Source: a virus
Reading direction: 5' to 3' (one strand)
IMG/VR virus record: IMGVR_UViG_3300045988_097304
Span: 1 to 42,522 of that record
Length of the DNA stretch: 42,522 bases
Positions 2,843-42,522 of this stretch are shown here, piece by piece. The notes below the pieces were generated by a model that was not told the origin of the DNA, searched no databases, and saw only the letters and a list, made by a program, of their open reading frames with translations. The number at the start of each line of letters is the position of its first letter. Positions within the stretch are counted from its first letter, which is position 1. The translations under genes and the position numbers were made by a program.

Positions 2843-3333
2843 CGCTCTTCCTCCTTCGGCAGCTCGGGCTTTGCAACGTCGAATTCTTCCGCAAACCACT
2901 TAAATACAAAATCAAGCGAATATGAGCCGAACCCACTGTGCATTTCTCCGTCTGTCAGGTCAAAATATGTAATGCCGTAGTATGGTTTTTCGGGTGTGCC
3001 GCTCACGTAGATTCTGGCGTATGGCGTTTTTATTTTGTGCTCATTCCTCTTCTCCGCCGCCAGCTTCTCCAGCATGTCGGCGGCTTTCCGCTTTACATAG
3101 TTGTTGCAGCCGACTAATTCCTCGTTACACATGCAAGGGCAACCCTCGCACGTCGCCCCCGCGCAAAGCCTCAGCGCGGTCACCAGTTCCTCGGCGTTCA
3201 GCTCCGGCTTCGGCTTTTCCTCCGCGTACTTGCACACCTCCGGGTGCTCGCTCGTCGGGCATGTGTCACCGCCATACGGACACTTGCTATTGGCGCAGGC
3301 ATAATCACGCTCGAAATACCATTTGCATTTCAT
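2839..3333 (-). CDS. Cys-rich paralog 1 (164 aa; module embedded after an extra Cys-rich N-terminus)
   Basis: EELVTALRLCAGATCEGCPCMC...AADMLEKLAAE matches the module. GGAGG RBS lies 8 nt before ATG 3333, which overlaps the mazG stop as ATGA. Confidence 0.6.
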   Translation of the reverse strand: MKCKWYFERDYACANSKCPYGGDTCPTSEHPEVCKYAEEKPKPELNAEELVTALRLCAGATCEGCPCMCNEELVGCNNYVKRKAADMLEKLAAEKRNEHKIKTPYARIYVSGTPEKPYYGITYFDLTDGEMHSGFGSYSLDFVFKWFAEEFDVAKPELPKEEER

Positions 3334-3704
3334 TTTTCGTGCCTCCATTCACATTCTCGGTTGATCCCCATCTTCTCCCGCACCGCCTTGTCAATGTCGA
3401 TTCCCAGATACCCGGCGGCGGACAGTGCCGTGATGATAACGTCTGCCAGCTCTTCGCGGAAGTAATCTTCTTCTTCGTCAAGCACCGATTTTAAAAGCTC
3501 CTGATTCTCCATAAATACGCGCAGCGTTGCATGAACTCGTCTTATCTCTTGCTCGGTATTTACAATTTTGTAAATCTGCAAAAGCCCAGAATCCCTCACA
3601 ACATCGCTATTCACCAACGTTTTCAGAAGATAGTCCTCGTCCCACAGCCCATGTGCCACCGCGTCACTGTAAATCTCATCGCGCAGTTCATTCAAATCGT
3701 TCAT
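3330..3704 (-). CDS. mazG: MazG-like nucleotide pyrophosphohydrolase
   Basis: EELADVIITALSAAGYLGIDIDKAVREKM is the typical MazG helix pair. Size 124 aa. Confidence 0.7.
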   Translation of the reverse strand: MNDLNELRDEIYSDAVAHGLWDEDYLLKTLVNSDVVRDSGLLQIYKIVNTEQEIRRVHATLRVFMENQELLKSVLDEEEDYFREELADVIITALSAAGYLGIDIDKAVREKMGINRECEWRHEK

Positions 3705-4130
3705 CTCGATCCTCCTCTAAAAATAACCACCATCGACGGAAAGGGCGCAGAGGTTTTCGCATCGCCAAACTTGATCCGCCCCTTCAAAAACCTGATTTCT
3801 GCCTGATGATAAATGTAGTCGTGAAAGGCTCGCGTGTCCGTCCGCGCAGGAATGAGCATCACCACCAGCGCGCCTTTCTGTGCTTCATCGTGTGCTTTTC
3901 TGATCCACTTTGGAAGCTCCCTTCCGTAGGGCGGATTGCAAAACACCCTTTTACCCCCCCCAATTTTGGGAAAGACCATCCTCCACCTTGGTAAAGTGAT
4001 CCGCGCATTTCGCGTTCTCGTGCGTGCTGCATGGATCGAGGTCAAAGTGGAATTCCGCGTCCAGCTCGTCAAAAAGAGCCTGCGGCGTCGCCCACTCAAC
4101 GGATGCGCTTGAAAATAGACAGCTATTCAC
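3701..4130 (-). pseudogene. dam: Phage Dam-type DNA N6-adenine methyltransferase split by a frameshift in a G8 homopolymer
   Basis: N-terminal frame from GTG 4130: WATPQALFDELDAEFHFDLDPCS..QNWGG, then stop. C-terminal frame: GGGKRVFCNPPYGRELPKWI..MLIPARTDTRAFH..APFPSMVVIF. The two frames join if the run at 3954..3961 has 7 G instead of 8. Confidence 0.8.
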
Positions 4131-6588: not shown

Positions 6589-7199
6589 TTCTTTTCCTCA
6601 GCTTTCCACGCCTTGTAACAGCCCCAGCAGAGCTTTTTCCCGCTCTCTTTTTCCGTAAATTCCGCGACGCCCTGCGCATCCTTGATGATTACGCCGTTTT
6701 TGTCGCTCAGGCTGAGAATGCTTCCTTTGCACATTGCGCAAATCAGTCTGGGTGCGGTCGGCTCGCTCTCATCAGGGGTAGTCTGGTCGGGGTCTGGCGC
6801 GGTCTCCTCCGTCGGAATGCTGAAAATCTGGAACATTGCGTATTTATAGGCGATTGCCATCGCCTTGTTTGTCGCTTTGTCGCCGCTGTCCATGCCTTCG
6901 CCGATGACGACCGCCTGAATGCTGCTTCCGTCCTCCGCATACAGCGTGTATCTCATCGTAACGATGCTGTATATCAGATTGTTGCCCTTTGCCGTCTTTC
7001 TCTCCTCGCGCTCTTGCCTAATGACCTCCGGCACGCAAAAGAGATTATGCTTGACCATCTGCGGGTTAAGCGCATTCATAACATCATCGACACCGCGATA
7101 ATTAAAGCCCTGCTGTTGATTGCGCTTGTCCTTTGTGACCGCGCCGAGGTCGCGCATGACCGCGTTAATCGCGCTGAATATCTTTGGGGCTTCTGCCAT
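6585..7199 (-). CDS. erf: ERF-family single-strand annealing recombinase with a C-terminal zinc ribbon
   Basis: APKIFSAINAVMRDLGAVTKDKRN..GFNYRGVDDVMNAL..., ...DKATNKAMAIAYKYAMFQIF. AAGGAGGA RBS before ATG 7199. Confidence 0.8.
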   Translation of the reverse strand: MAEAPKIFSAINAVMRDLGAVTKDKRNQQQGFNYRGVDDVMNALNPQMVKHNLFCVPEVIRQEREERKTAKGNNLIYSIVTMRYTLYAEDGSSIQAVVIGEGMDSGDKATNKAMAIAYKYAMFQIFSIPTEETAPDPDQTTPDESEPTAPRLICAMCKGSILSLSDKNGVIIKDAQGVAEFTEKESGKKLCWGCYKAWKAEEKK

Positions 7200-8599: not shown

Positions 8600-8974
8600 T
8601 CACCTCCTAATCAAGAACATCAGAAATGCCCCTACGCAAACGCCCCATATGAATTCCACCAGTATCCAAAGCACGATGGTCTTGACGTCGAGACCGGGTT
8701 CGCCCTCAGCCTCCCGCCGCGTCCCGCGATACGGGATTGCGTTCATGTTCTTTCTGCAAGTGCTTTCGGCTTTCATCTGGTCGCAAAGCTTGGTCAGCGA
8801 TTCGCTGATGACGCTGATGAATAACACGTTTCCGTCGCTCGACTCCGTTGCCTCCAGCGGCGTTCCGCCGATCCGGCTCAGCGCGTTGACGACAGCCTGC
8901 TTGTCGAGCATTTTCAAAAAGGTTTTGAGTCTGCGGATGTCATAGAGCAGAATGTCCATTTCATCCAAATCCAT
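8600..8974 (-). CDS. Hypothetical protein with a C-terminal membrane anchor (124 aa)
   Basis: C-terminal IVLWILVEFIWGVCVGAFLMFLI. RBS AAAGGA. Confidence 0.55.
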   Translation of the reverse strand: MDLDEMDILLYDIRRLKTFLKMLDKQAVVNALSRIGGTPLEATESSDGNVLFISVISESLTKLCDQMKAESTCRKNMNAIPYRGTRREAEGEPGLDVKTIVLWILVEFIWGVCVGAFLMFLIRR

Positions 8975-9005
8975 CTGTTCGTTCCTTTCTCCCTACCTAA
9001 ATCTG

Positions 9006-9014
9006 TGTTATACT
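9006..9014 (+). promoter_or_regulatory. Extended -10 element TGTTATACT for the plus-strand 58-aa gene
   Basis: TG at 9006-9007 and TATACT at 9009..9014. No good -35. Confidence 0.35.
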
Positions 9015-9038
9015 GTAAATCAGGAAGGGGGTGATATC

Positions 9039-9215
9039 ATGTCTACCGAGTTGCGTCAGCAGCTTGCTCTCCTTTACGCTCATGCCCGTGCCAGCGGACA
9101 CGACGTAACGCCTGAACAAATCAAGCTCTGGTTTGATGAGGCTATGGATGCTTACGCTTTCAAGCCAGAGCAAAAGGTTGAAAAGCCCGAATGGGATTTC
9201 GCCCTGCGCGATTGA
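9039..9215 (+). CDS. Plus-strand 58-aa hypothetical protein embedded antisense in the early operon
   Basis: GGAAGGGGG RBS before ATG 9039. Followed by its own terminator. Confidence 0.55.
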   Translation: MSTELRQQLALLYAHARASGHDVTPEQIKLWFDEAMDAYAFKPEQKVEKPEWDFALRD

Positions 9216-9223
9216 CACCTTTC

Positions 9224-9253
9224 GCCGGATGGTTAGTCGCCATCCGGCTTTTT
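9224..9253 (+). terminator. Rho-independent terminator
   Basis: GCCGGATGG/CCATCCGGC stem, 7-nt loop, TTTTT. Confidence 0.75.
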
Positions 9254-9496
9254 AAATGCCGCCGGAATTCCGTATCGCGCCGCGAAGCTGATTTTCACGC
9301 TCTCTTTGCAGAATCGAGCAACGTTTTTCCTGCCCGTAATCCGCCCGTCGCGGCACTCCCGCGCAATCAGCGCGAACAGCCCGTCCAGCATCGCCTGTTT
9401 TTCCTCTGCCGTCGCCAGCACTTCATCCATCGCTTTCGCGGTCTCGATGCAGTTGGCAATCAGGTCGCTGCCCTTTTCCACGATTTCCTTTGCCAT
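9233..9496 (-). CDS. Hypothetical protein (87 aa)
   Basis: AGGAGG RBS. The stop lies in the loop of the convergent terminator. Confidence 0.6.
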   Translation of the reverse strand: MAKEIVEKGSDLIANCIETAKAMDEVLATAEEKQAMLDGLFALIARECRDGRITGRKNVARFCKESVKISFAARYGIPAAFKKPDGD

Positions 9497-11361: not shown

Positions 11362-11491
11362 AAAAAAATAGCCCTGTCCGTGCGCTAACACAGACAGGAC
11401 GATGGCACCCCCCTGACAACCGCGAAAGAAGGGAACATCTATATGATACCATATTTCCCTTCCTTTCGCAACATAGAAAGGAAGATTGATT

Positions 11492-12571
11492 ATGCCGAAA
11501 ATTGAAAAGACAAAGACCGGTTACCGCGCCCGCATCTCTACGGGTGAAAAGCTCCCGTCCGGCGGATATCGCTATATTTCCGTTTCTGGCGCGACGAAAG
11601 CCGATGTAAGGCGAATGATTGCCGAGTTCGACGAGAACCGCGAAAACGCCCTTTCCGCGAATCTGGCGGGGCGTGTGACGCTGGCTCAGGCGATGGATAA
11701 ATACCTCGATACCTGCCGCTCCGCCGGTCGCTCTCCGTCCACCATTCGCGGCTATGCCGCCATGCGGCGCAACGGTTTTGAATCTCTCGAATCAAAGCCC
11801 ATCGCCAAAATTTCCCGCGCCGAATTGCAATCTGTGGTCAATGACTGGACGCGATCCGGCGCAACCCCGAAAACCGTCCGCAATAAGCTCGGCTTTCTCT
11901 CCGCTTCCATGAAGCACGCCGGAATCGAGCCGCCGACGCAAGGACTGATCCTGCCCGAACCCGACCGCAAAGAGATGACCATCCCGCAGGATGAAGACGT
12001 GCAGCGTGCGCTGTTCTACCTTCGCGCACACAACACCAACCTCTACGTCGCGGTCGTCCTTGCCGCAACGCTGGGTCTGCGCCGCGGCGAAATCGCCGCC
12101 CTGACGATGGATGACTTCGACTTCGACGCGGGAACGGTCACCATCAGCAAGTCACTCGCCATGGATGAGTGCGGCGACTATGTCACCAAAGCCCCGAAGT
12201 CCCGCAGCGGTAACCGCGTCCTGCGCGGGCTGGATGCGCTCGTCGTCTCCGCTGTCCGCAACTTCGGTCATCAGCCGCCGCAGACCATCACCGGCATGAC
12301 ACCCGCCAGCATCACAGATTCGTACATGCGCCTGTGTAACAAGCTCAATCTCCCCGGTCGCTTCCATGACCTGCGCCACTACGCCGCGTCCGTCATGGCA
12401 GCCCTCAACGTCCCGCCCAAGTACGCTCAGGAGCGCATGGGACACGCGACGCTCGACATGCTCAATCGTGTCTATCAGCACACGATGAGCAAAAAGCGCG
12501 ATGCCGTAGCCGACGCGATTGCGTCTCACAACGCCGCGCTGCTCGGCGGCAAATCCTGCCAGTACAAATAA
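11492..12571 (+). CDS. int: Tyrosine site-specific integrase
   Basis: LGLRRGEIAAL (box I Arg) and RFHDLRHYAASVM...MGHATLDMLNRVYQH (HxxR...Y). Adjacent to the attP-like region. Confidence 0.9.
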   Translation: MPKIEKTKTGYRARISTGEKLPSGGYRYISVSGATKADVRRMIAEFDENRENALSANLAGRVTLAQAMDKYLDTCRSAGRSPSTIRGYAAMRRNGFESLESKPIAKISRAELQSVVNDWTRSGATPKTVRNKLGFLSASMKHAGIEPPTQGLILPEPDRKEMTIPQDEDVQRALFYLRAHNTNLYVAVVLAATLGLRRGEIAALTMDDFDFDAGTVTISKSLAMDECGDYVTKAPKSRSGNRVLRGLDALVVSAVRNFGHQPPQTITGMTPASITDSYMRLCNKLNLPGRFHDLRHYAASVMAALNVPPKYAQERMGHATLDMLNRVYQHTMSKKRDAVADAIASHNAALLGGKSCQYK

Positions 12572-12590
12572 TTATGCCGCGAATTATGAC
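12571..12590 (+). repeat. Arm-like repeat copy 1 ATTATGCCGCGAATTATGAC
   Basis: 19/20 match to copy 2. It contains two direct ATTATG half-sites 12 nt apart and starts at the int stop codon. Confidence 0.85.
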
Positions 12591-12640
12591 ACGGCGAAAT
12601 AAAAAGTCTAATAAAATAAGAGCTTTTAAGGCGTTTTCGT

Positions 12641-12668
12641 GCGGGTTCGACCCCCGCCACCGGCACCA
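12641..12668 (+). other. 3' fragment of a tRNA gene (T arm, 3' acceptor strand, discriminator A, CCA): probable attP core
   Basis: GCGGG-TTCGACC-CCCGC T arm, CACCGGC, A, CCA. No matching 5' acceptor strand (GCCGGTG) within 100 nt upstream, so it is not a complete tRNA. Confidence 0.7.
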
Positions 12669-12671
12669 AAC

Positions 12672-12707
12672 AAGGAATCTAGCAATAGCTAGATTCCTTT
12701 ATTTTTT
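12672..12707 (+). terminator. Strong rho-independent terminator directly after the tRNA fragment
   Basis: Perfect 12-bp stem AAGGAATCTAGC/GCTAGATTCCTT, loop AATA, then TATTTTTT. Confidence 0.8.
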
Positions 12708-12791: not shown

Positions 12792-12811
12792 ATTATGCCG
12801 CGGATTATGAC
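12792..12811 (+). repeat. Arm-like repeat copy 2 ATTATGCCGCGGATTATGAC
   Basis: Direct repeat of copy 1 on the other side of the tRNA fragment. The 23-nt CGATTATGCCGCGGATTATGACG is identical to the inverted copy at 40006..40028. Confidence 0.85.
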
Positions 12812-12818
12812 GAGCGCA

Positions 12819-13217
12819 TCACGTGTTCTTCAGCTCTTCGCGCATCCGGCGCAGAACGTCTTTCTGTCTTTCGTTCGCGCCGCGCATCATGTTGTCGATC
12901 TGCTCCATCATCTGCTCTTTGCCGCCGCCCCTGCTGTAATAGGGTTCTCCGCGTCGGCTGATTTCCCGGCTGCTCTCCGTACCGTCATATGCGCCGTAGC
13001 TGTATCCGCGGTCGTAGCCGCCGTAATCGTTGCCGTCGTAGGCACGGCTGTAACGTTCGCCCTGCTCAAGCATCTTGATTTTCTTGACGTCCTTGATGAT
13101 ATCAACGAGCTTGTATGCCTGGTCAAGCGTCGTCGAGGTCAGATTCCCTTTTTCGACGATCTCGCCGATCTCATCGCAGCACATTTCGCAAAGCTGATTC
13201 AGCGTTCTCATTTCCAT
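12819..13217 (-). CDS. Accessory operon gene 6: Tyr/Gly/Asp/Arg-rich protein (132 aa)
   Basis: GAAAGGGG RBS before ATG 13217. Central YDGNDYGGYDRGYSYGAYDG...YYSRGGG low-complexity region flanked by helical ends. Confidence 0.6.
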   Translation of the reverse strand: MEMRTLNQLCEMCCDEIGEIVEKGNLTSTTLDQAYKLVDIIKDVKKIKMLEQGERYSRAYDGNDYGGYDRGYSYGAYDGTESSREISRRGEPYYSRGGGKEQMMEQIDNMMRGANERQKDVLRRMREELKNT

Positions 13218-13231
13218 ATTATGCCCCTTTC

Positions 13232-13654
13232 TCACGCCTCGCGCGTCACGATGACGTTGGTGTTCGCCACGCTGACCGCCTGCGTGCTGGTGTTCTCCAG
13301 CGCAACGTTGACGCAGCATCCACGCGGCACGTCAATGTAAGCCGCGCCGCTGACATTAAAGTAGTTGTCCGTCGCCGCCGGGGTTACGATGGCGGTCGCA
13401 TTGTTCAACGATTCTCCCGCGATGGTCAGTGCCATGGAGATTGCGCCGACCGTTCCGCCAGTCGGAATGGCGATGTTCGCATTGTACATCACCAGATACC
13501 GCGCCTTACACTGGTTCGTCTGTCCCCGCAGCGTGATCGTTCCCGCCCCGTTCCGGTGCTGGATACAGGGTTTTCCGCTCTCGATCCTGTCCGTAAGCGG
13601 CACGACCTGCCCCGCCGCCACAGTTACGATGTTGCTGTTGCCATATTCAGCCAT
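13232..13654 (-). CDS. Accessory operon gene 5: beta-rich 140-aa protein resembling C1q/TNF-like (BclA C-terminal type) jelly-roll domains (tentative)
   Basis: Alternating pattern IVTVAAGQVVPL..GAGTITLRG...YLVMYNANIAIP..GAISMALTIAGE..NVALENTS..VSVANTNVIV. AAGGAG RBS. Confidence 0.55.
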   Translation of the reverse strand: MAEYGNSNIVTVAAGQVVPLTDRIESGKPCIQHRNGAGTITLRGQTNQCKARYLVMYNANIAIPTGGTVGAISMALTIAGESLNNATAIVTPAATDNYFNVSGAAYIDVPRGCCVNVALENTSTQAVSVANTNVIVTREA

Positions 13655-13668
13655 GATTTCATCTCCTT

Positions 13669-13700
13669 AAAAAACGCGGCAGGGCGCAAAGCCCCGCCGC
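13669..13700 (-). terminator. Intrinsic terminator/attenuator inside the accessory operon
   Basis: Minus-strand GCGGCGGGGC..GCCCTGCCGC hairpin followed by GTTTTTT, immediately before the AAGGAG RBS of the next gene. Confidence 0.6.
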
Positions 13701-13760
13701 TTTGTCGCATCATCGGTTGCCCGACCAGTCCGGCTCTGCCGAACAGTTGCTTTTATTTAC

Positions 13761-14504
13761 TTAGCAGTTGCATCCGCCGCAGTTACCGAACTGGTACGGA
13801 GCCGGAACCGGGAAGGACGGAACCGGGCGCGGGTTGTAGTAGGCGAACTGCTCACCCACATACGCCTTGAGAACATTGTTCTGCGCCGCCTGAGACGCCG
13901 CCAGCTGAGCCGCAAAGAGCTGCTGGTTCTGCTCGGCGATCTTCGCGTCCTTCGCTTCGATCCTCTGTGCCGTCAGCGCATCGAGAACCGCGCGCGCGTT
14001 CGCGTTCTGGTTGTCGATGATGTCGCGCGTCGTGGTCTGGATGGTGTTGCGCGTCTCGCATCCCTGCTGTGCAAGATTGTAGTTGACGCCCTGGATCGCT
14101 TCGCGCGTCTCGCAGCAGCAATTCGCCTGTTGTGCCTGCATCGCGTTAAGCTGCTGCATGAACGCCATCTGCTGGTTCGCCCTGCTGATTTCTGCGTTCA
14201 TGAATCCGTTGCTCATGCTCTGCTGTACGCCGTTGACAAGCTGAGCCTGCGCGTAAAGGCCGTCGCAAAGCCCGTTGTTTACGCCGTCAAGCTTGCGCTC
14301 GATGTTGGCAAAGTCGCTCGTCAGCACATAGCCGTCCATGACGCCCGCGCCGGTGCTGCCGCCGCGATTGCCGCCCCAGCCGCAGAATACGAACAGGAAC
14401 AGGATGATGATCCACCACGCGCCGTCTCCGCCCCATCCGGACGAATTGCGATTATTGCCGGAAGGTTCGACCGGCATGGTCATCGGGATACCGTTTTCCA
14501 TCAT
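13761..14504 (-). CDS. Accessory operon gene 4: membrane-anchored Q/N/A-rich coiled protein with Cys clusters (247 aa)
   Basis: N-terminal SSGWGGDGAWWIIILFLFVFCGWGGNRGG (YjcZ-like Gly/Trp + TM), then internal CCCETREAIQ...GCETRNTIQ repeats. C-terminal GNCGGCNC. Confidence 0.6.
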   Translation of the reverse strand: MMENGIPMTMPVEPSGNNRNSSGWGGDGAWWIIILFLFVFCGWGGNRGGSTGAGVMDGYVLTSDFANIERKLDGVNNGLCDGLYAQAQLVNGVQQSMSNGFMNAEISRANQQMAFMQQLNAMQAQQANCCCETREAIQGVNYNLAQQGCETRNTIQTTTRDIIDNQNANARAVLDALTAQRIEAKDAKIAEQNQQLFAAQLAASQAAQNNVLKAYVGEQFAYYNPRPVPSFPVPAPYQFGNCGGCNC

Positions 14505-14543
14505 AGTGATCTCCTTTCTTTTTGTTAAATCGTGCGCACGATT

Positions 14544-14765
14544 TTAACCCATGAGTTGTTGAAACTGCCTTGCCATGCTTTGCAGCTGGTCAAGCTGCTG
14601 CTGGCTCATTCTGCCGGATTGCAGGAGCTTTTGGACTTCCTGTTTTGGGTCGCCCTGAAAGCTGGCTCTGAACTGATTGAATTGCTGCATCATCTGACCA
14701 AATCCCGGGGCATTGTGCATATTCTGCATATTGCCGCCCAGCATGTTAAACAGCGGATTGCCCAT
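14544..14765 (-). CDS. Accessory operon gene 3: Gln/Met-rich 73-aa protein
   Basis: GGGAGGAAAAG RBS. MGNPLFNMLGGNMQNMHNAPGFGQMMQQFNQF... Confidence 0.55.
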   Translation of the reverse strand: MGNPLFNMLGGNMQNMHNAPGFGQMMQQFNQFRASFQGDPKQEVQKLLQSGRMSQQQLDQLQSMARQFQQLMG

Positions 14766-15204
14766 CTTCTTTTCCTCCCTGCGTGAGCGCGTTCAACTTT
14801 GCCGCCAGCGCGTCAAATTCCGCGCGGGTGACGTATTCCACGTTCGGCGTCTGAGCCGCCTGTACGGGCGCTTTTGCCGTCTGTGTCCGTTCTGAATAGT
14901 CGAATATCCGCAGCGGCAGCGGCATTCCGCTCTGGTCGCTGCTCTTGAGGTAGAACGTGCTGTTTTCGCTGTCCATCAGCAGGACGCTGTTCCCTGCCGC
15001 GACCATGTACGCTTTAGCGCCCTCTTCGCCCTGAACCCAGATGATGGGCGCGGTCTGCGGCGGCTGTGATGCAACCGGCTGTTGCATGGATGCAACTGTT
15101 GGTTGTATTGGATAGCCCTGCCTGAGCTGTGCCAGCTGGTCCGGCATCGGCGGGTTCATCGGCGGCGTGTAGTATCCGCCCGGGTAGCCATTGTAAAAAG
15201 GCAT
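14746..15204 (-). CDS. Accessory operon gene 2: Pro/Tyr/Gly/Gln-rich N-terminus plus a conserved-looking globular domain (152 aa)
   Basis: AAGGAG RBS before ATG 15204. MPFYNGYPGGYYTPPMNPPMP... then IIWVQGEEGAKAYMVAAGNSVLLMDSENSTFYLKSSD. Confidence 0.6.
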   Translation of the reverse strand: MPFYNGYPGGYYTPPMNPPMPDQLAQLRQGYPIQPTVASMQQPVASQPPQTAPIIWVQGEEGAKAYMVAAGNSVLLMDSENSTFYLKSSDQSGMPLPLRIFDYSERTQTAKAPVQAAQTPNVEYVTRAEFDALAAKLNALTQGGKEDGQSAV

Positions 15205-15209
15205 GGCAT

Positions 15210-15584
15210 TCACTCCTTTTTCCAGTAGTAAATGGGCATCTCTCCGCCGCTGTCCCACGTGTCAAACCAATCTCCGTCCTGCACGCAGACCACATGCCCG
15301 TTCATCGCCACAACATAGCATCCAGTCGGATGATCTCGGCAGAAGTCGGCAAGCGTATAGCAGTCCGGGCAATCGTCCGGCAGACTGTGGCGGGTAAAAC
15401 CGTTCTCTCTGAGGTACGCGCCCCAGACCCGATTCGATGACGGCATGTCGTGCCATACAAAACCCTGCGCCGCGATCCCGACGAACGCCCTTTCCCAACT
15501 CTGCCCCGTTGCCCGGCATACTGCGCGTATCGCGCAGTCCCCGACGCGGGTCAGTTCGGGATTGGGGTTGTAAGGCTTGTACAT
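15210..15584 (-). CDS. Accessory operon gene 1: putative papain-like Cys/His protein (124 aa)
   Basis: MYKPYNPNPELTRVGDCAIRAV (candidate nucleophile Cys) ... NGHVVCVQDG..DTWDSG (candidate His/Asp). AGAGGTGA RBS. Confidence 0.5.
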   Translation of the reverse strand: MYKPYNPNPELTRVGDCAIRAVCRATGQSWERAFVGIAAQGFVWHDMPSSNRVWGAYLRENGFTRHSLPDDCPDCYTLADFCRDHPTGCYVVAMNGHVVCVQDGDWFDTWDSGGEMPIYYWKKE

Positions 15585-15659
15585 CGTCGTCACCTCTTGC
15601 TTCCATTCTGCCATTTTGAGCGCGTCATCGCGGGTCACATCCGGGTCAATTCAGGGTAT

Positions 15660-15690
15660 AAAAAAAGCCCGGAAGGTCTCCCCCTCCGGG
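15660..15690 (-). terminator. Rho-independent terminator after the lysis/regulator genes
   Basis: Minus-strand CCCGGAGG..CCTTCCGGG hairpin followed by CTTTTTTT. Confidence 0.7.
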
Positions 15691-15696
15691 TCTTAC

Positions 15697-15963
15697 TCAA
15701 TCGCTCGTTTTTCTTCCAAGCGATTGTCCGTCCGTCTGCCGCCTCTGTCTTGCTCTGACGCGGTTGATTTTGTCCTGTACCTTCCGCGATTCGCGCTTGA
15801 CCGTCTCCGGCGAAATGTGCAGCCGTTGCGCCGTCGCAATCAGGTTGTCCGTCTGCGCTCGGGTGACAAATACCTCTCTCTGCCTGTCCGTCAGCCCGCA
15901 CGCCTGTATCAGCTCATCACGCTCATCCTTGGTAAATCCCGCAAACGTGATCTTGCCGCACAT
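15697..15963 (-). CDS. Small sigma-70 region-4 / LuxR-type HTH protein (88 aa)
   Basis: LTDRQREVFVTRAQTDNLIATAQRLHISPETVKRESRKVQDKI. ATGA overlap with the holin stop. Confidence 0.6.
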   Translation of the reverse strand: MCGKITFAGFTKDERDELIQACGLTDRQREVFVTRAQTDNLIATAQRLHISPETVKRESRKVQDKINRVRARQRRQTDGQSLGRKTSD

Positions 15964-16418
15964 CAGTCTCCCTCCGTGCCCTCGTCGTTCTGCTCCTTAA
16001 TCTGCTCAAGTGCCTTCTTAATAAAGGCAGGGAACGGCACGCCGATGATTGCCAGATTCTCCGTGATGCTCAGTCCCTCATTCGCGACGTAAAACATCGC
16101 CATCGCGTCACGGAAAACCCGCGTTCCTTCCGGCATCACGCGGTCAAGCTGTGCCGCCATGAAGACCACCACCAGCATGACCGCCTTCTTGAGCAAGCCG
16201 TGCCAGCCCGTCTTGCTGTCCAGCTTTCCGCCGTCCGTCTTCGGGCTTTTGCCCATCATCCCGCAAATGCACCCTGTCACGTAGTCAATTCCCATCATGT
16301 AGCACAGCACGATCAGCAACGTATCCCAACCTCCCATTGCACCCGCGATTGCTCCGCCCGCAAGTGCCGCCATCTTGAGTACCTTATCCCAGATTCCCGA
16401 CCAGTTGTTCATGGTCAT
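15963..16418 (-). CDS. Holin, LL-H / TcdE (toxin secretion-phage lysis) family
   Basis: MMGIDYVTGCICGMMGK...LDSKTGWHGLLKKAVMLVVVFMAAQLD...FYVANEGLSITENLAIIGVPFP. Three hydrophobic segments. Confidence 0.85.
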   Translation of the reverse strand: MTMNNWSGIWDKVLKMAALAGGAIAGAMGGWDTLLIVLCYMMGIDYVTGCICGMMGKSPKTDGGKLDSKTGWHGLLKKAVMLVVVFMAAQLDRVMPEGTRVFRDAMAMFYVANEGLSITENLAIIGVPFPAFIKKALEQIKEQNDEGTEGD

Positions 16419-16761: not shown

Positions 16762-17502
16762 TCAATCTTCCGCGATTTCCCATTTCCCCGCCAGCGTAAC
16801 ATACACGCCGTCGCTCCTTCTGAGCGTCGTCGTTTCCGCGCCGCCCGCGTCCGCAGCGTTCCCCGCATCGGCATCCGGTGTGTTCTCGTCCTCCACCAGA
16901 TACGCTCCTGACATGTACCCCGCCACGCCGTTTTCCAGCTTCCCGAACACCCAGCCCGTGCCGCCCGCCTCGCGGATGACGTTCACCCGCGTTCCGTTCT
17001 CGGCTTTGGCGATGATTTTCGCCGCCGTGCCCGCGCCCTCGCGGATGTTCAGGTAGCCGCTCGTGACCGATACCGTCGCGTTGCCGAATTCCTTTTCCAT
17101 TCCATTCACCTCAATCATCCTGTGCTTTCCCAGCCCGTTCCAGCCGTTCTTCTCCGTCAGCTCGGTTTCGACCGTCCCGCCCCTGCTCTTGCTTGAGTGG
17201 ACGACCGTCCCCTTCTCCGTCACCAGCCCGACGTGATTCACATCGCCCGTACCCACGCCCATGAACGCCAGCATTCCCGCCTTCGCGCCAGAAATGCCCT
17301 CCTGCTTCCATGTCAAATCGCGGTATTTCGCGCTGTTTGCGTCGCTCTCCCAGAGCGCGTTCGTACCTGCCGTCGTGTAGCTTTTCTCCCCGCCCGCGCT
17401 GACGCGGATGACCTTCTTAATGAGGTTGATGCAGTCCAGCTCATCATAGCTTGTGCCAAGCAGTCCCCGCGCCGTGCGGAGTGCTTCCGCCGTCTTAATC
17501 AT
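16762..17502 (-). CDS. Endolysin: NlpC/P60-type cysteine peptidase plus SH3b-like wall-binding domain
   Basis: YDELDCINLIKKV (Cys), VNHVGLVTEKG (His), then SGYLNIREGAGTAAKIIAKAENGTRVNVI..GWVFGKLENGVAGYMSGAYL. GGGAGGGG RBS before ATG 17502. Confidence 0.8.
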   Translation of the reverse strand: MIKTAEALRTARGLLGTSYDELDCINLIKKVIRVSAGGEKSYTTAGTNALWESDANSAKYRDLTWKQEGISGAKAGMLAFMGVGTGDVNHVGLVTEKGTVVHSSKSRGGTVETELTEKNGWNGLGKHRMIEVNGMEKEFGNATVSVTSGYLNIREGAGTAAKIIAKAENGTRVNVIREAGGTGWVFGKLENGVAGYMSGAYLVEDENTPDADAGNAADAGGAETTTLRRSDGVYVTLAGKWEIAED

Positions 17503-17584
17503 CCCAAGCCCCTCCCGCGTGAATGAACCTCGCAATGCCGATGCACGCCAGCAGGCAGAACGCCGCGATTACAATGCCCATCAT
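17495..17584 (-). CDS. Possible 29-aa membrane peptide
   Basis: Read by hand: MMGIVIAAFCLLACIGIARFIHAGGAWDD. ATGA overlap upstream. Confidence 0.3.
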   Translation of the reverse strand: MMGIVIAAFCLLACIGIARFIHAGGAWDD

Positions 17585-21686: not shown

Positions 21687-24600
21687 TTACTTTTGCTTTT
21701 TGATGGTCGTGCCGCCGTATGCCTGCTTGATGATGTGCGACCCCAGCGATTCGCCTGTGACGTAGAGCTCCTCATACTTGGCATACACCTCGTTCGCTTT
21801 CAGCGCAAGGCGGCACATCCTCATGCGGATGCTATTTGTCAGCTCGTATTTCTGCTCGTCCGTCAGGTCGTCCCGCCCATTGATGGCGTCGATTTGCTCA
21901 TACCCCTCGCTGATGGCTTGCTTCGCTTCGTATAGTACGCCGCCCTTGTGCGTCAGGTCGTAGGCAACGTCATATGCCTTTTGCGCCTGCCTCGGTGTCA
22001 GGTCGCCGCGCAGCATGTTAAATTCCTTGCCGTTTTCGCCCGCCTTGACCACCGTCGTCAAGAAGCTGCTGTTGTCGTATACGCGGCTTACAACGTCGTT
22101 GCTCACAAGCGGGTTGCTGGTGAGCTGTTTGCGTGCGTATGCCACTGTCGAGCTGAAGAGTGCCGTCGCCGGATTGCTTGCGTCCATGTCGCTCATCGCC
22201 GGAATGACGACCTGACCGAGATAGCCCGTATATTGCTGTGCCACATATTGCAGCATCATCGGGCTTTTGCCGATGGCTCTGCCTACCAAAACAAACAGCC
22301 CTGCCGTGTCTTCCGTGTACTGCGTAGACGGATCCCAATTTTCCATATAGCTTGGTACGATGCGGCTGCCATACCAATTCTTATTCGTCTGCATGGAGAG
22401 TATCGGGTCAGCAATCGTGCCGCTGATGGGGTACAGTCCGTCCGCAATCGTCGCCATGGATGCCGTGAAATCAATCGCCCACTCGTCGCCCTCGCCTTTC
22501 CACAGGACGTTCGTCATCAGCGAATTGACCGCGTATGCGACGGGGTCTTGCTCGACGGGAATGCGGATGAGCGGCGCATCTCCGAACACACCGGGCGCAA
22601 AGTTCGGAAGGAAAATGTGTTTGCTCTTGAGGTCGTCGCTCATGTACATGAACGCCTCTTTGTCCTCGTCGTCCATGCCGAGCAGCGCCGCATTCGCCAG
22701 CGCGACCAACGCGCCTGTATTGAGCAGTGTTTTGACAAATCGCTTTGCCGCCTGTCCGCTCTCCTGCTTTGTCCCCTGCCGCGCCGTGCGGTATGTGCCC
22801 TGCAAACTCGCGTTGAAAAACGGCACGATGTCGCTGATGTTCCTTGCGATGCCGCTTGCTCCCCTGCGGCTGAAATCGACCGTTACATCCTGCGCCGCGC
22901 GGAAGGCTTCGGCTCTGCCGGTGTCCGTCGTCAGGTCGTGCTTGCCATACCGATATTCGGCGAATCGGCTTGCCTGCTCGATGACCTCGTTCGGGTACGC
23001 CAGTGTCGCAAACTCCCATAGCTTTTTGCCAGCCCATTTCCCCTTGCCGCCGAGCGTCTGTGTCTCGTAGTTGTCCTTCCACTTGCCGTTGTCAAAGACC
23101 GCTCCGCGTATCTCCTTCGCGCTTTTGGCGTCGCCCGTAGATACTCGCGTCCAGCCGCCGCCGCCCAGCGCGACATAGTCCTTGTAGGAATCCTTGTCAG
23201 TCAAAATCTCATGTACGGCTTTCACCCATTTATACAGCCCGTCCGCATAGCTGGTTGCCCATGTGCCATAATTCACACTGCTCTGAAAGTCGCGCAAAAA
23301 GTTGCGTGCGGCAAAAACAGGGTTGCTGCCCGTCGTCAACGCGCTCATCGCATGCGTCGCCTTGCCAAGCACGTTGAAAATTGATTTTCCGTTGTCCGTC
23401 GCGTTGGTCATCATCTTGTAAAACAGCGGGTCTGTGATGGTGTAATAAGTCTTGCTTCCGTCCGGATGCTGTACTGTGATGACGTTGTTTTCGTTCGCCG
23501 TGCCGACAAATTTTGCCCTGTCCGCGTCGATGCCCAGCAGAATATCCGTCATGACGTCCTCGCTGACGTTGCCTTTTTGCAGACTCTCTCTCGCGCTTTC
23601 CATCCGCGTCAGCGTCTGCTCGTCGCTGAACGTTCCGCTTGTCTGCTCGATGGGGCGTCCCAGCACACCGAAGCCCTCATACTCCTTGTACAGGCGGTCA
23701 AACAGCAGGTTTGTCTGATTTTCCATGTTCATCCGCACGATTTTCTGCGTCATTTCGCAAAAACTGTCAAAAGGCGACACAATCTGCTCCGTGCTTCCCT
23801 TTGCGCCGCGGATGGTGTAGGTCTTCCCCCCGCCGCTCCGGCTGCTTCCGACCGGTGCGTTGTCCTTGACGCGGTTGGTCGGCACATAGCTCGGATACAT
23901 CGCTTCAAACTGCTCAAGCTGCCACGCCTTGAGATAGCCCGTATCGACCATCCACACCTGCATGAAATCGTGCCTAAAGCTCTGGAATGCCTTCTGCGCT
24001 TTGGCGAATTCGGGGTGCGCACGCTCCGTCTGCTGGATGTATGCCAGCCTCTCCGCTCGCGGGTATGTGTTGTTGTCCAATACGGGCTTGCCCTGTTTGT
24101 CGCGGTCAAGGCTGTGCTTGACGAGCATCCAGTTGAGCCATTCCTGCAAATCCTTGCCTTTTAAGCCGGATTCCTTGATGCGCTCTTTGAGACTGTCGCC
24201 GATGCGCGTTCCGCGAACGTCTGTCAGGGACTCCGTCAGCTGTGCGTATGCCCGCTTGTCCGCCGTATTGCGCAGCAGCGCACTCTCCCGCAGGTTGTCC
24301 TCAAACGCGACGACCTTTTCCCCTGTCGCGTCGCGGATGATTTTGTTCGCTTTTTCTGCCGGCGCGGTGCTGTCCACGAGCGCATAGAGAAACGCCTCGT
24401 CCAGCTTCTCATTGCTCTTGATGTCGCTTCTGTCTACGACCATCGCTCTGACCCGCTCGCTGAAGCTGGCGTTCAGGTAATTCCGGATATCCGTCTTGGC
24501 TTTGGCAATCGGCTTCTCCATGCCCGCGTCCGCGACCGCCTGCTCAAACTGCGCGAAAAATCCCTCTCCCGCAAACTCCTTCGCCGCCTCGTCGCTGACC

Positions 24601-27600
24601 ATGTATCGCCACGTAAATTCAGCCATCGCCTCTCCCGCCATCTCCGCGTCCGTGTAGTTCTGCTCCCACGATGCGTTTTCGGCTTTCAACGCCTCGACCA
24701 TCTCCGGCGTTCCGGTGATGCCCGTCCGCTCGCTGATGGCGTGTCCGATCTCGTGCATGTTGATGTCTACGCGCCCTGCGCTCACGGCGTCCGTCGCCAT
24801 GTATCGCATCGCGTCGCGATACAATCCGTGTCCGCCTTGCGCTTCGCTCATGTTCCTTGCGCCCAGCGTCGAGCCTACGCCGATATCCTGCGCAAGTTTT
24901 TTGACGGTCTTGACGATGTTGTTGTCTTTTTTGCTCTTCCCTTCCGCCTGTTCAACCTCAACCCCGCGGTAAGTCCGCCTCTGTTCACCCTGCGCACTCC
25001 TGCCGACGTCGCCCTCCATGACCGCCTTTGCCGCGCGCCGAATCTGCGCCCTGTCCTTCGGCTCTTCGACCTTTTGGTGCATCTCACGATACGACTGCTT
25101 GCGCTCCATCAGCGCACGCATGATGTCCTCGTGCGGATTAAGGCTTGCCGCGTCCATGTAACCGCCGCTTTTCTGCGCCAGCCCGACGTAAAACTGACCG
25201 TCCAGCGGAATTGCGCCGTCGGCTCTGTTTTGCGTAAAGCGCGTCCCATAAGCGGCGTTGACCCGCGAAATCGTCTTTAGCCCCGTCATGCTTAGGATGT
25301 CCGCCGCCTGCGAATCGTTGATATAGACCTTTTGACTGCGCATGGTTTGCTCCACGCCCTTTAGCGCATCGTATGTCTCTTTATCAAGCTCTTTCTGCGC
25401 CGCTTGGCTCATGTATCGCTCATAGTCCGCCTCGAGCCTTGCATTGTCGCGCTCTCGCGCCGCGTCGGTCTCAATCTCTAATTCTCCGATTTGGCGGAGC
25501 GCATCGTTTACCTCCGAAGCAAACACGTTCAGCGCGTTGTCGTCGAGCTTGCTCAGGTTTTCGTTTAAGTCCCTTTGCAGTTGTTCGATTCGCTTTGCGC
25601 TGACGGGGTCTCCGTCCTTGAGTGCCTGCGCAAGTGCCTCTGCCTGTCTGCCCGCCTTGATAATGGTGTCCATTGTCTTCAGCTCCGGCGCGTACTGCTC
25701 CTCAAATGTCGTGCTGACAACCGTCTTGCCCGGTCGCCCGTCCGATGCGGCGCGGTTTTCTTCCTGCGCGATGCCGGACGACGCTTGTTCCGCTCCACCC
25801 GTCAGCTGCACCTCAGCGTCCGGATTGGCGTACCTTGCGTCAGGCTTTGCGTTGTTGACGTACGTCGTCTTGCTGCTGCCTGTCTCGTTCGGGTACAGCG
25901 TCTCCTCAAGCTCCCAGTCGCTCCGGCTCTGCGTGTAGATGCGCTCCTTCGCACGCGCCAGCTCGACCTGACGCTCCATCTCGGCGCGCGTGTCCTCGTC
26001 AAGCCCCAGCTCCTGAGCCTGTGCAAGCCCCTGTTCAAGCCGCTCGCGCGTCTGCGTCGCTTCTTCGATTCCCGGCTCTGCAATCTCAACGCGCTCCCGT
26101 CGCAGCTCGTCTATGCGGCTCTCGATTGCCTGCTTGACGTCCTCGTCAAGCCCCATCGTCTCCGCGTCGGCGTAGCTCTGGCGCATGGCGTCCATCTCTG
26201 CGTCAATGTCCGCAATCCGGCTCATGGTCTCCATCTCCGCCTGCCACTGTGCGACCGTCTGCGCGTTCTGTTCCTTGCTGATCTGTGCGCCGCGCTTTCG
26301 CGCCTCGTCCAGTCCCTTGGCGTAGGCGTCCTCTGCCGCCGCCTTGTGCTTTCGGGCGGTGTCGGCGTACTCGTTCGCCGTCTTCTGGTTTTCGCCCATG
26401 CGCACGCGCGCCTGCTGCATGTCCTTGATTTTATCAATGTCGCCCGCCATGACCGCGTCGCTGTACGCTTCAAATTCGCTTTTCGCCGCGTCCGCCGCCT
26501 GTTGCGCCGCGTCCGCTGCCGTCTGCGCCTCCTGCTGCATGCGTACCTGCGTGTTGCCTTCCTCAAAGTGCTCCGCGCCTACGCCCGCCATTGCCGCCGC
26601 AGCCGTGTTCTGTGCGTCTTGCGCCTGCTGTGCCGTCTCGTTGACCGCCTGTGCCACTTCGGGGTTTTGCAGCGCGTCGGCAAGGCTCTCCGTCACCTCG
26701 GCAAGGTTTTCCGGCGTAACGTCCGCCGTCCCGTCCATCATCTTCTGACTGAGCGTGACGGCAGGCAGATGATACCCCGGTAGCTTGCGCCGAATCGCCA
26801 TACCCGTATAGCCCGCCAGCGTAAATACGACGCTTGCCGCCGCGCCGCCTACAAAGCTCTTGCCGCCGCTGGCGATCATCTCGGCGGGGTCAACCGACGC
26901 AAGCCCCGCCAAAACATCGCTGAATTGCGGCTTTTCGCCCGCGTCGATTTTCAGGGCAATGGGGTAGAGCATCGCGTTGTACAGGTTGGTCGCCGCGTCC
27001 TCCGCAAGCTCCTCCGTGCCCTCCTGCACCGCGTTTTTCGGGATGTCGTGCGCCAGAGCCTTAGCGTATTCAGCGAATTTGCCTCTCAGCGTCAGGGTCT
27101 TGAGCGCGTCCTGCTTGGCAAGCTGCTGCTCAAGCAGACTGCGCCCGCCAAGCAAATCGCCCTCCATTTCCGCGCCCGGCGCATTGATGACCGTGCTGAT
27201 GACCGCCGGTCCCATGGCGAGAGCCGCCGCCGTAGGCTTGCTCAGTCCGCTGCTTACAGCCGCCTCGTAATTGTCGTTCCACGCCTGCGTGCCGTAGATT
27301 GCCGCAGACGCAGCCATGGCGGGCGTTCCCGCCGCGCCCAGTGCGCCGACCGCCAGCATGCCCGTTGCGCTTCCCGCGATGCTTGCCGAGCCGCTGAACA
27401 CATTCTGCTCAAACTCGTTGCCCAGCGACGCGAAATCCGTCAGCCCCTTTTGGGCGTTGTCCATCGCGCCCATGAATGCGCGATATCCGTTGCCGATAAA
27501 GCCGTTGTCGATCTTGTAGCCGATGTCGTAGATGTCGCTGACCTGCCCGATGTTTTGCAGCAGTGCCGCGCTCTGCTCTTCGCTCAATTCGCCGCTGTTG

Positions 27601-42322: not shown

Positions 42323-42522
42323 ATGAATAATATGACACTGAAAAAGGGGTATTCGCTCGTTTGGGGCGAACCCGAGGGTTCCGGTTTTTGTGGCGACGGC
42401 ACGACTGTGCCGGTGTCCCTTGTTCGCGAGGGGCAGATTGTGGCAAAGTTTGTCACCTGCCCTTGCGGTCGCGGCTGCGGCAACAAAGACGTCGTGTTGT
42501 GCGACGCTTTGGGCAGCCATGA
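42323..42522 (+). CDS. Cassette gene 4, 5' part of the 78-aa Cys-rich protein continuing at 56..92 across the circular junction
   Basis: AGGAGG RBS before ATG 42323. ..FVTCPCGRGCGNKDVVLCDALGSHDCEPE.. Confidence 0.55.
   Translation, partial: MNNMTLKKGYSLVWGEPEGSGFCGDGTTVPVSLVREGQIVAKFVTCPCGRGCGNKDVVLCDALGSH
42468..42522. repeat. Terminal overlap copy 2 (identical to 1..55)
   Basis: See copy 1. Confidence 0.95.

Follow-up and report, generated by a model that had tools for sequence, protein, structure and literature searches.

The temperate phage genome held in IMG/VR virus record IMGVR_UViG_3300045988_097304 (42,522 nucleotides, hereafter referred to in full as the window) carries, between positions 12,819 and 15,584 of its minus strand, a cassette of six genes (here named g1 to g6) that is found in very many temperate phages of gut Clostridia. 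This cassette was shown to be dispensable and exchangeable cargo, with g4 and g5 as its constant core. It is tentatively read here as a self-contained and portable module of the moron type that would encode a membrane-anchored, cross-linkable stalk-plus-head assembly and modify a host-derived surface, a reading that we place somewhat below an even chance. The six genes are the following:

15584..15210, minus strand: g1, encoding a protein of 124 amino acids (aa)
15204..14746, minus strand: g2, encoding a protein of 152 aa
14765..14544, minus strand: g3, encoding a protein of 73 aa
14504..13761, minus strand: g4, encoding a protein of 247 aa
13654..13232, minus strand: g5, encoding a protein of 140 aa
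13217..12819, minus strand: g6, encoding a protein of 132 aa

All six minus-strand open reading frames (ORFs), which an earlier note made from the sequence alone had already listed, were present, each with an ATG start and, as likewise claimed there, a purine-rich ribosome-binding site (RBS) upstream. The intergenic gaps measured 5, –20, 39, 106 and 14 nt, in keeping with the 0–40 nt spacing given in that note save for the 106 nt between g4 and g5. Its compositional remarks also held, i.e., 17 Gln and 9 Met among the 73 residues of g3, 10 Tyr, 14 Gly and 10 Asp in g6, and nine Cys, a CCC motif and an GNCGGCNC end in g4. For comparison, 80 genome loci were retrieved via g5 and 80 IMG/VR loci via g4 (160 in total), while IMG/VR cassette loci number at least 582. 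The synteny search that the note had proposed revealed that the detected genes were colinear and on the same strand in all 160 independently retrieved loci, always in the orientation of the late genes. Moreover, each of the six proteins matched a PHROG of no assigned function (E-values from 6e-11 to 7.5e-56), and clustering at 90% identity yielded 2,698 clusters for the g5 family, more than 7,800 for the g4 family and more than 7,700 for the g1 family, with members of these three families stemming nearly all from gut metagenomes or Caudoviricetes. Because of these PHROG matches, the large families and the gene order kept in 160 of 160 loci, the six genes are real, far beyond chance.

The first core component, g5, is modelled as a stand-alone jelly-roll protein of the TNF/C1q/BclA-C-like type. 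In its AlphaFold2 (AF2) model (predicted local distance difference test, pLDDT, of 90.1) the jelly-roll covered residues 2–138 and matched the ten-strand fold of the superfamily of the BclA C-terminal domain (CTD), C1q and TNF. A Foldseek search of the PDB returned F-BclA-CTD first (9h38; E 5e-7, TM-score 0.73–0.76), followed by BxpB (8d02), BclA (3twi), ExsFA (7r1m), EDA (1rj7)/TNF and C1q, so that the earlier suggestion of a BclA/C1q/TNF-like protein proved right at the level of the fold. The nearest viral models (BFVD) were stand-alone proteins of 130–142 aa from uncultured sipho-, myo- and podoviruses, and a profile search among 1.8 billion representatives gathered 743 clusters at 50% identity, the best 150 of which were short stand-alone proteins (72–196 aa). 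Four cysteines of g5 were invariant (C30, C49, C113 and C114), and the protein was 60–70% identical across phages with unrelated tails. Sequence and profile searches of the PDB with g1, g2, g4 and g5 brought up nothing beyond noise (for example, antibody chains, VP5, stomatin and haemagglutinin).

The other core component, g4, is a predicted single-pass membrane protein (PHROG 16490, E 2e-49). A hydrophobic transmembrane (TM) segment of 15 residues (about residues 29–43) with Gly-rich flanks is followed by a long Q/N/A-rich helical region that contains an invariant CCC motif, then by a Pro-rich part and finally a Cys-rich C-terminus. Neither a family in Pfam or NCBIfam nor a relative among PDB sequences was found. 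The proposed resemblance of g4 to YjcZ-type sporulation peptides was not borne out, since the YjcZ model (TIGR01732) gave no match in the NCBIfam scan at E≤1, where the only hits were coiled-coil noise (LeoA, MreC), and the likeness was limited to the Gly-flanked TM segment.

The protein at the front of the cassette, g1 (PHROG 3754), carries a CPDC motif, and alignments of 57 and 44 sequences revealed D16, C17, H97 and D108 to be invariant, which equals the GDC...GH...D pattern pointed out in the earlier note. In the AF2 model (pLDDT 94.5), C17 opens a helix (residues 17–26), H97 opens a strand (residues 97–102) and D108 lies in another (residues 105–108), which places these conserved residues in the Cys-His-Asp arrangement of papain-like (clan CA-like) peptidases. 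As for the papain-like fold that the note had suggested, this triad geometry was compatible with it, but no significant match was obtained: Foldseek hits were weak (E 0.2–1.2, best 0.22; TM-score 0.34–0.47), with AvrPphB, the ComA C39 domain, Tae4 and Josephin-2 at ranks 1–4 and PeiR at rank 9, and four of the top five being papain-like. Pfam, NCBIfam and PDB sequences gave no match to g1. Judging from the model, g1 is a putative minimal papain-like Cys-His-Asp peptidase. A role as prohead protease was considered and rejected, as the cassette is usually far from the head genes and dispensable. In a cassette variant that lacks g1, a metalloprotease of 106 aa with an HExxH motif stands at the end, its gene being translationally coupled to g6. 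Among the genome loci, g1 was present in 60 of 80 and the metalloprotease in 11 of 80, and the two were never found together. A protease is a constant part of the cassette but an interchangeable one, either the candidate papain-like g1 at the front or the HExxH metalloprotease at the end. As a separate observation, a small extra ORF that ends at the g1 start and is translationally coupled to g1 was seen in eight loci (L006, L008, L015, L026, L028, L031, L032 and L036); it bears a UBA-like motif, LV.(L/C)GFT..(M/A)A.D.

The remaining three proteins are of low complexity in part. In an alignment of 56 sequences, g2 (PHROG 21718, E 2e-33; no hit in Pfam or PDB) started with a stretch rich in Pro, Tyr and Gln, which was followed by a conserved, beta-rich core and by a helix at the C-terminus. 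The Gln/Met-rich and helical g3 (PHROG 22984, E 8e-20), whose gene overlaps the g2 stop by 20 nt, was found in 51 of the 80 genome loci and 74 of the 80 IMG/VR loci. The g6 protein (PHROG 28802, E 6e-11) begins with a helical domain and ends in a helix; the low-complexity core between them is variable and rich in Tyr, Gly, Asp, Arg and Ser, and in relatives it carries variable YSR-type repeats. An assignment of g6 to DUF2524 was dropped, as the hit was limited to the window protein (1 of 41 relatives) and no consistent Pfam family emerged. Sequence inspection revealed neither a signal peptide nor a lipobox in any of the six proteins, and all except g4 (i.e., five of six) are cytoplasmic by sequence.

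Besides its six protein genes, the cassette comprises a regulator gene and several nucleic acid elements:

15697..15963, minus strand: reg88, encoding an 88-aa small helix-turn-helix (HTH) protein (sigma-70 region 4 or GerE-LuxR-like), the start of which overlaps the holin stop
15668..15690, minus strand: intrinsic-terminator-like hairpin with a T-run (9 pairs, 7 of them GC; CTTTTTTT)
15613..15648, minus strand: promoter-like platform, with TGACCCG repeats at 15648..15642 and 15637..15631 and CAAAAT at 15618..15613
13669..13744, minus strand: three-hairpin RNA, with hairpin 1 at 13744..13728, hairpin 2 at 13725..13712, hairpin 3 at 13700..13676 and a U-run reaching to the g5 RBS

The reg88 gene, absent from the earlier description, is the seventh member of the unit. 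Its product gave weak hits to GerE and Sigma70_r4 in Pfam (E 3e-4 to 1e-3) and to sigma70-ECF in NCBIfam (E 7e-4). In 127 of 169 loci, a reg-like ORF on the same strand preceded g4 by 1–2.5 kb, sited just upstream of g1 or, in locus L074, between g1 and g2. The terminator that had been claimed upstream of the cassette was confirmed as the hairpin at 15690..15668, which is conserved in L083, L090 and L190 and, being terminator-like, probably insulates the cassette from the lysis genes. Just past it, about 30 nt before the g1 ATG, lies the TGACCCG-N4-TGACCCG direct repeat followed by CAAAAT, a platform kept in the window, L083, L090 and L011, and also in L190 ahead of different cargo. It contained no match to a canonical sigma-70 promoter, and sporulation-sigma-type promoters, looked for by eye upstream of g1 and g5, could not be called as the motifs were too ambiguous. 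The repeat with CAAAAT may serve as a binding site for reg88.

The 106-nt gap between g4 and g5 is filled by the three-hairpin RNA, which was conserved after g4 in about 45 related loci, diverged ones included. Its first hairpin keeps its pairing despite many different sequences, RNAalifold gave compensatory changes for 10 of 13 pairs, these ten belonging to the second and third hairpins, and covariation was seen in each of the three stems. Overall, 96% of cells were paired vs. 38–62% in slid controls, and none of 500 shuffles reached the observed values. The third hairpin looks terminator-like; since in Faecousia-type phages it occurs without a U-run and with an outer stem ending at the g5 RBS, the element is more than a terminator. 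No Rfam family matched this RNA (hits to mir-4899 and tmRNA lay elsewhere and below threshold), and a small ORF inside it was rejected, as frame and length are not conserved and the base pairing covaries. It may act as an attenuator or translational operator that sets the ratio of g1–g4 to g5–g6. The unit consists of the six genes, reg88, the terminator, the promoter-like region and the structured RNA between g4 and g5.

The setting of this unit in the window is given by the following features:

17535..16762, minus strand: NlpC/P60-SH3 lysin gene (family scan)
between the lysin and holin genes, minus strand: gene for a DUF4406 protein
16418..15963, minus strand: Phage_holin_4_1 holin gene (family scan)
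12672..12699, plus strand: hairpin closing the cassette
12640..12668, plus strand: attP-type core, a tRNA/tmRNA 3′ end GCGGGTTCGACCCCCGCCACCGGCACCA (weak, E 0.11)
11486..12571, plus strand: tyrosine integrase gene, beyond the cassette end

The late genes on the minus strand run from lysin, DUF4406 protein, holin and reg88 through the terminator-like hairpin into g1–g6. Three arrangements were encountered among the relatives. In the first, lysis genes (with lysins and holins of at least four unrelated types) are followed by the cassette and then by attP and integrase or host DNA. In the second, the cassette lies between portal/minor head genes and scaffold/major capsid protein (MCP) genes (about 20 of the 80 genome loci, in two lineages). 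In the third, the g1-less metalloprotease variant stands after tail or holin genes. Adjacency to attP, which the earlier note had claimed, was supported in the window by the weak attP-type core beside the integrase, but is not universal in relatives. ARAGORN found no complete tRNA at this site. A direct repeat, GTCATAAT(C/T)CGCGGCATAAT, at 12572–12590 and 12792–12810 flanks the tRNA/tmRNA-like 3′ end, and the integrase probably uses these repeats as arm sites on either side of the attP core. In many relatives, the integrase is encoded on the opposite strand, 3–3.5 kb past the g4 start.

Decisive for the status of the cassette are phages that share the lysin, holin, reg88 and integrase of the window at 87–99% identity. 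Some of these (L176, L179 and L182) carry the cassette, L178 and L194 carry variant cassettes in the same backbone, and L183 and L190 lack it and hold an unrelated three-gene cargo instead, with the holin at 95–97%, reg88 at 87–98% and the integrase at 89–95% identity. This alternative cargo (6227–7356 in L183, 10026–11157 in L190) encodes proteins of 165 aa, 111 aa and about 100–109 aa, the first with a Gly-zipper TM segment, a coiled-coil and a Pro/Cys tail. It had no credible Pfam family (the 165-aa protein gave a single hit, below threshold, at E 0.04), and hhalign revealed no relation between g4 and this TM/coiled-coil protein, nor between g5 and a 129-aa Cys-rich protein of L194. At the g5 position of L178 stands a protein that hits BclA_C (E 3.4e-7; 30.6 bits against a gathering score of 38), to which g5 itself aligned weakly (hhalign E 0.0017, probability 15%), and at the g6 position stands a DUF7841 protein. 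Being present or absent among close relatives at a junction of conserved genes, the cassette behaves as a moron or accessory cargo, as had been proposed with the suggestion of lysogenic-conversion-type genes. The cassette is moreover flanked by terminators before g1 and after g6 and headed by the conserved promoter-like platform, which is not of the canonical sigma-70 type. An essential virion module it is not, being absent from L183 and L190 and accompanied elsewhere by sets of tail, lysis and head genes that are unrelated. Since phages can dispense with the cassette or exchange it, it belongs to neither the core virion nor the core lysis machinery.

Further observations concern mobile genes inserted in the cassette and integration. 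A C5 DNA methyltransferase gene is inserted between g4 and g5 in L022 (8825–9940), an annotated endonuclease gene on the opposite strand lies between g3 and g4 in L001 (Dulem virus 33; 8766–9317), and an insert of ~1 kb with int-alpA RNA lies between g3 and g4 in L026 (about 3050–4080), the cassette being otherwise unbroken in each. Two unrelated cassette prophages adjoin an ORF of 158–162 aa (11322–11798 in L093–L095, 7427–7915 in L025). In L093 this ORF matches the C-terminal half (regions 3–4) of RpoD (270 bits) and is followed by trmK, and its counterpart in L025 had Pfam hits to Sigma70_r3 and r4 only, which suggests that these phages integrate within rpoD and replace its 3′ half with one of their own. 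Beside the prophage junction of L025, in Lachnospira intestinalis, lies a Clostridiales-1 RNA (RF01699, 147 bits) at 6904–7072 on the minus strand.

As for the window itself, its first ~56 nt (1–56) recur at 42467–42522. This direct terminal repeat marks a circularly closed assembly, and the window was matched by metagenomic contigs of 42.6–43.1 kb; it is therefore a complete temperate phage genome of ~42.47 kb. Among its tail genes (21687–30137, minus strand) lies a single ORF of 2,816 aa with an LPD38 (large polyvalent protein) domain, in a region with a GC content of 60–70%.

Every retrieved locus of which the flanks were examined had a phage or prophage context. Host records were mainly of Oscillospiraceae and Lachnospiraceae, with cultured carriers including Lachnospiraceae bacterium JLR.KK009 (CP143549), Eubacterium sp. 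14-2, Lachnospira intestinalis CLA-AA-H89B and Butyrivibrio sp. INlla21. In GenBank phage records, the cassette occurred only in uncultured gut phages and in no characterised phage. Neither the phage records nor the literature searched (prophage/BclA/exosporium/Lachnospiraceae; DUF7841/BclA_C) yielded a description of a system with the same gene set, and the F-ENA appendages, considered as a related system, use DUF4183 and are unrelated.

In the assembly that we tentatively favor, g4 would be a membrane anchor whose stalk lies in the cytoplasm, going by the positive-inside rule and by the missing signal peptides of the other proteins; on inspection, the charges flanking the TM segment fit this topology. 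Trimers of g5 would cap or dock on g4, the low-complexity proteins g2, g3 and g6 (Tyr/Gly/Gln/Met-rich) could serve as matrix, adaptor or chaperone, and the protease would mature one of these three. The outcome would be a self-assembling, cross-linkable layer of head-on-stalk proteins, similar in build to the BclA/ExsFA nap or to a type II TNF ligand, on a membrane surface that can be reached from the cytoplasm. Such a surface could be offered by the forespore or the spore when a lysogen sporulates, or by membrane remnants freed at lysis. The most likely role would be the modification of a host-derived surface to the benefit of phage or lysogen, rather than particle construction.

A number of observations weigh against this assembly. 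The g4–g5 contact, the trimerisation, the topology and the protease substrates are what we infer, the papain-like reading of g1 is only compatible with the data, and scans of all six proteins against Pfam, NCBIfam and PADLOC gave no credible family that would support a function. Phage fibre knobs and a fibritin-whisker annotation are also among the fold matches of g5, which has no Pfam hit at E≤1 (BclA_C, PF18573, included) and by sequence neither collagen-like GXX repeats nor an exosporium leader. The site next to attP is replaced by the head block in about 20 of 80 genome loci, or by a place after tail genes. Moreover, the reg88 and holin genes are translationally coupled, and g1 overlaps a minor head gene in the head-block phages (L074); because of these two links, transcription may be purely late lytic, which would leave little time for building a surface layer. 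Finally, Butyrivibrio and Lachnospira, both described as non-spore-forming genera, are among the hosts, which speaks against a role on spores.

This last point bears directly on a more specific proposal, in which the mother cell would assemble g4, g5, the matrix proteins and the protease on the forespore as a phage-specified outer layer that alters adhesion, transmission or germination, its expression timed by the RNA and the HTH protein. A spore-surface role is possible by analogy, fitting the fold, the Cys/Tyr-rich composition and the missing signal peptides. Of the spore-coat-like composition asserted in the earlier note, the Cys/Tyr/Gly-rich character of the six proteins stood, which, like their want of a signal peptide, recalls coat and exosporium proteins, but the fold of g5 is shared with phage knobs. 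Spore dressing in this strict sense is in our estimate unlikely.

We also consider it unlikely that the cassette is an optional extension of the lysis module, in which g4 would resemble spanins, XhlA or LL-H holins, the protease would cut wall or envelope, and the other proteins would help to disrupt or shed the envelope. The location directly past the holin in most loci and the coupling of reg88 to the holin invite this explanation, as do an LL-H-like holin ahead of the cassette in L046 and the usual lysis slot occupied in L057 and L062, where no recognisable endolysin was found within ±10 kb. The cargo of L183 and L190 likewise opens with a protein with a TM segment, a coiled-coil and a Pro/Cys tail, and the weak fold hits of g1 include a peptidoglycan amidase (Tae4) and a pseudomurein isopeptidase (PeiR). 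Yet these same close relatives, L183 and L190, lyse without the cassette, the window phage is already equipped with a lysin of the NlpC/P60-SH3 type and a holin, a terminator parts these from the cassette, and the head-block loci (about 20 of 80) hold it far from any lysis genes. The hosts, being Clostridia, are monoderm and do not need spanins, and neither a TNF-like trimer nor Tyr-rich low-complexity proteins have a known precedent in lysis.

Rather doubtful is superinfection exclusion (Sie) or defense, in which a membrane complex would block DNA entry or adsorption of other phages or mask receptors on debris. The moron slot with its presence/absence polymorphism and alternative cargos, the membrane-protein core, the own regulator, terminators and promoter-like region, and the portability across phage backbones would all suit such a system. 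However, PADLOC gave no hits, six to seven genes are many for a Sie system, all six proteins but g4 are cytoplasmic by sequence, and the 60–70% conservation of g5 does not fit an arms-race interface.

Least convincing, and very improbable, is an accessory of the virion, a fibre on the head or neck that g4 and g5 would build, tipped by a knob and optional for infectivity, with the other proteins as adaptors, chaperone and maturation protease: the placement that two phage lineages show, between portal/minor head and scaffold/MCP genes, the constant late-gene orientation and the likeness of g5 to fibre knobs and to a fibritin-whisker annotation point that way, but the cassette is absent or replaced in near-identical phages, accompanies virion architectures that are unrelated and in most cases stands past the lysis genes near attP, the g4 TM segment is strongly hydrophobic, g5 is unusually conserved for a receptor-binding tip, and Tyr/Arg/Gly low-complexity proteins are atypical of virions.

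Whichever function applies, few uncharacterised gene blocks are as widespread as this cassette in phages of the dominant Firmicutes of the human and animal gut, and it moves as a unit between unrelated phages; it therefore probably confers a strong benefit that is independent of the phage backbone. Should the favored stalk-plus-head layer indeed decorate spores or cell remnants, it would constitute a new class of phage-encoded surface structure with a bearing on transmission and colonisation of gut Clostridia, and if the spore-dressing proposal were true, phages would remodel the transmissible form of major gut commensals. Even with a lytic or defensive role, several features would be new: the TNF/BclA-like head with a membrane stalk, the swappable protease, the dedicated HTH protein and the structured RNA.

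Compared with known systems, g4 shares with spanins (Rz/Rz1), XhlA and LL-H-type holins an N-terminal TM segment, a coiled-coil-like helix, conserved Cys residues and a site past holin and lysin. Unlike the setting of spanins, the hosts (Oscillospiraceae and Lachnospiraceae) are monoderm, inspection of the six proteins revealed no lipobox and hence no lipoprotein partner, and the cassette is dispensable and often away from lysis genes. With type II TNF ligands (EDA-A1) and C1q it would share a general design in which an N-terminal anchor carries a trimeric head on a stalk and a protease goes with them, provided that g4 and g5 are in contact. In contrast to those ligands, however, g4 and g5 are separate polypeptides, the g4 stalk is predicted to be helical and not collagenous, the head has no secretion signal, and the system is bacterial and viral.

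The BclA/ExsFA(BxpB) nap of the Bacillus cereus group has the same jelly-roll as g5 and supplied its best PDB matches. Like ExsFA/BxpB, g5 is a stand-alone protein (about 140–170 aa); it has no signal peptide, its partners are Cys-/Tyr-rich, and the sister cassette in L178 holds the BclA_C-hitting protein at the g5 position. The differences are that g5 has 10–12% identity, no BclA_C hit in Pfam, no collagen repeats and no leader, that it is phage-borne, and that its partners have no homologues in Pfam, NCBIfam or PDB sequences. Finally, with the lambda morons bor and lom and with the cargo slot that Gram-positive prophages have between lysis genes and attP, the cassette shares insertion between conserved genes, co-orientation with late genes and exchange; likewise, terminators and a promoter-like region flank it, and it is present or absent in close relatives. 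It differs from these morons in comprising seven genes and a structured RNA, in forming a strongly conserved and extremely widespread block, and in having its regulator coupled to the holin.

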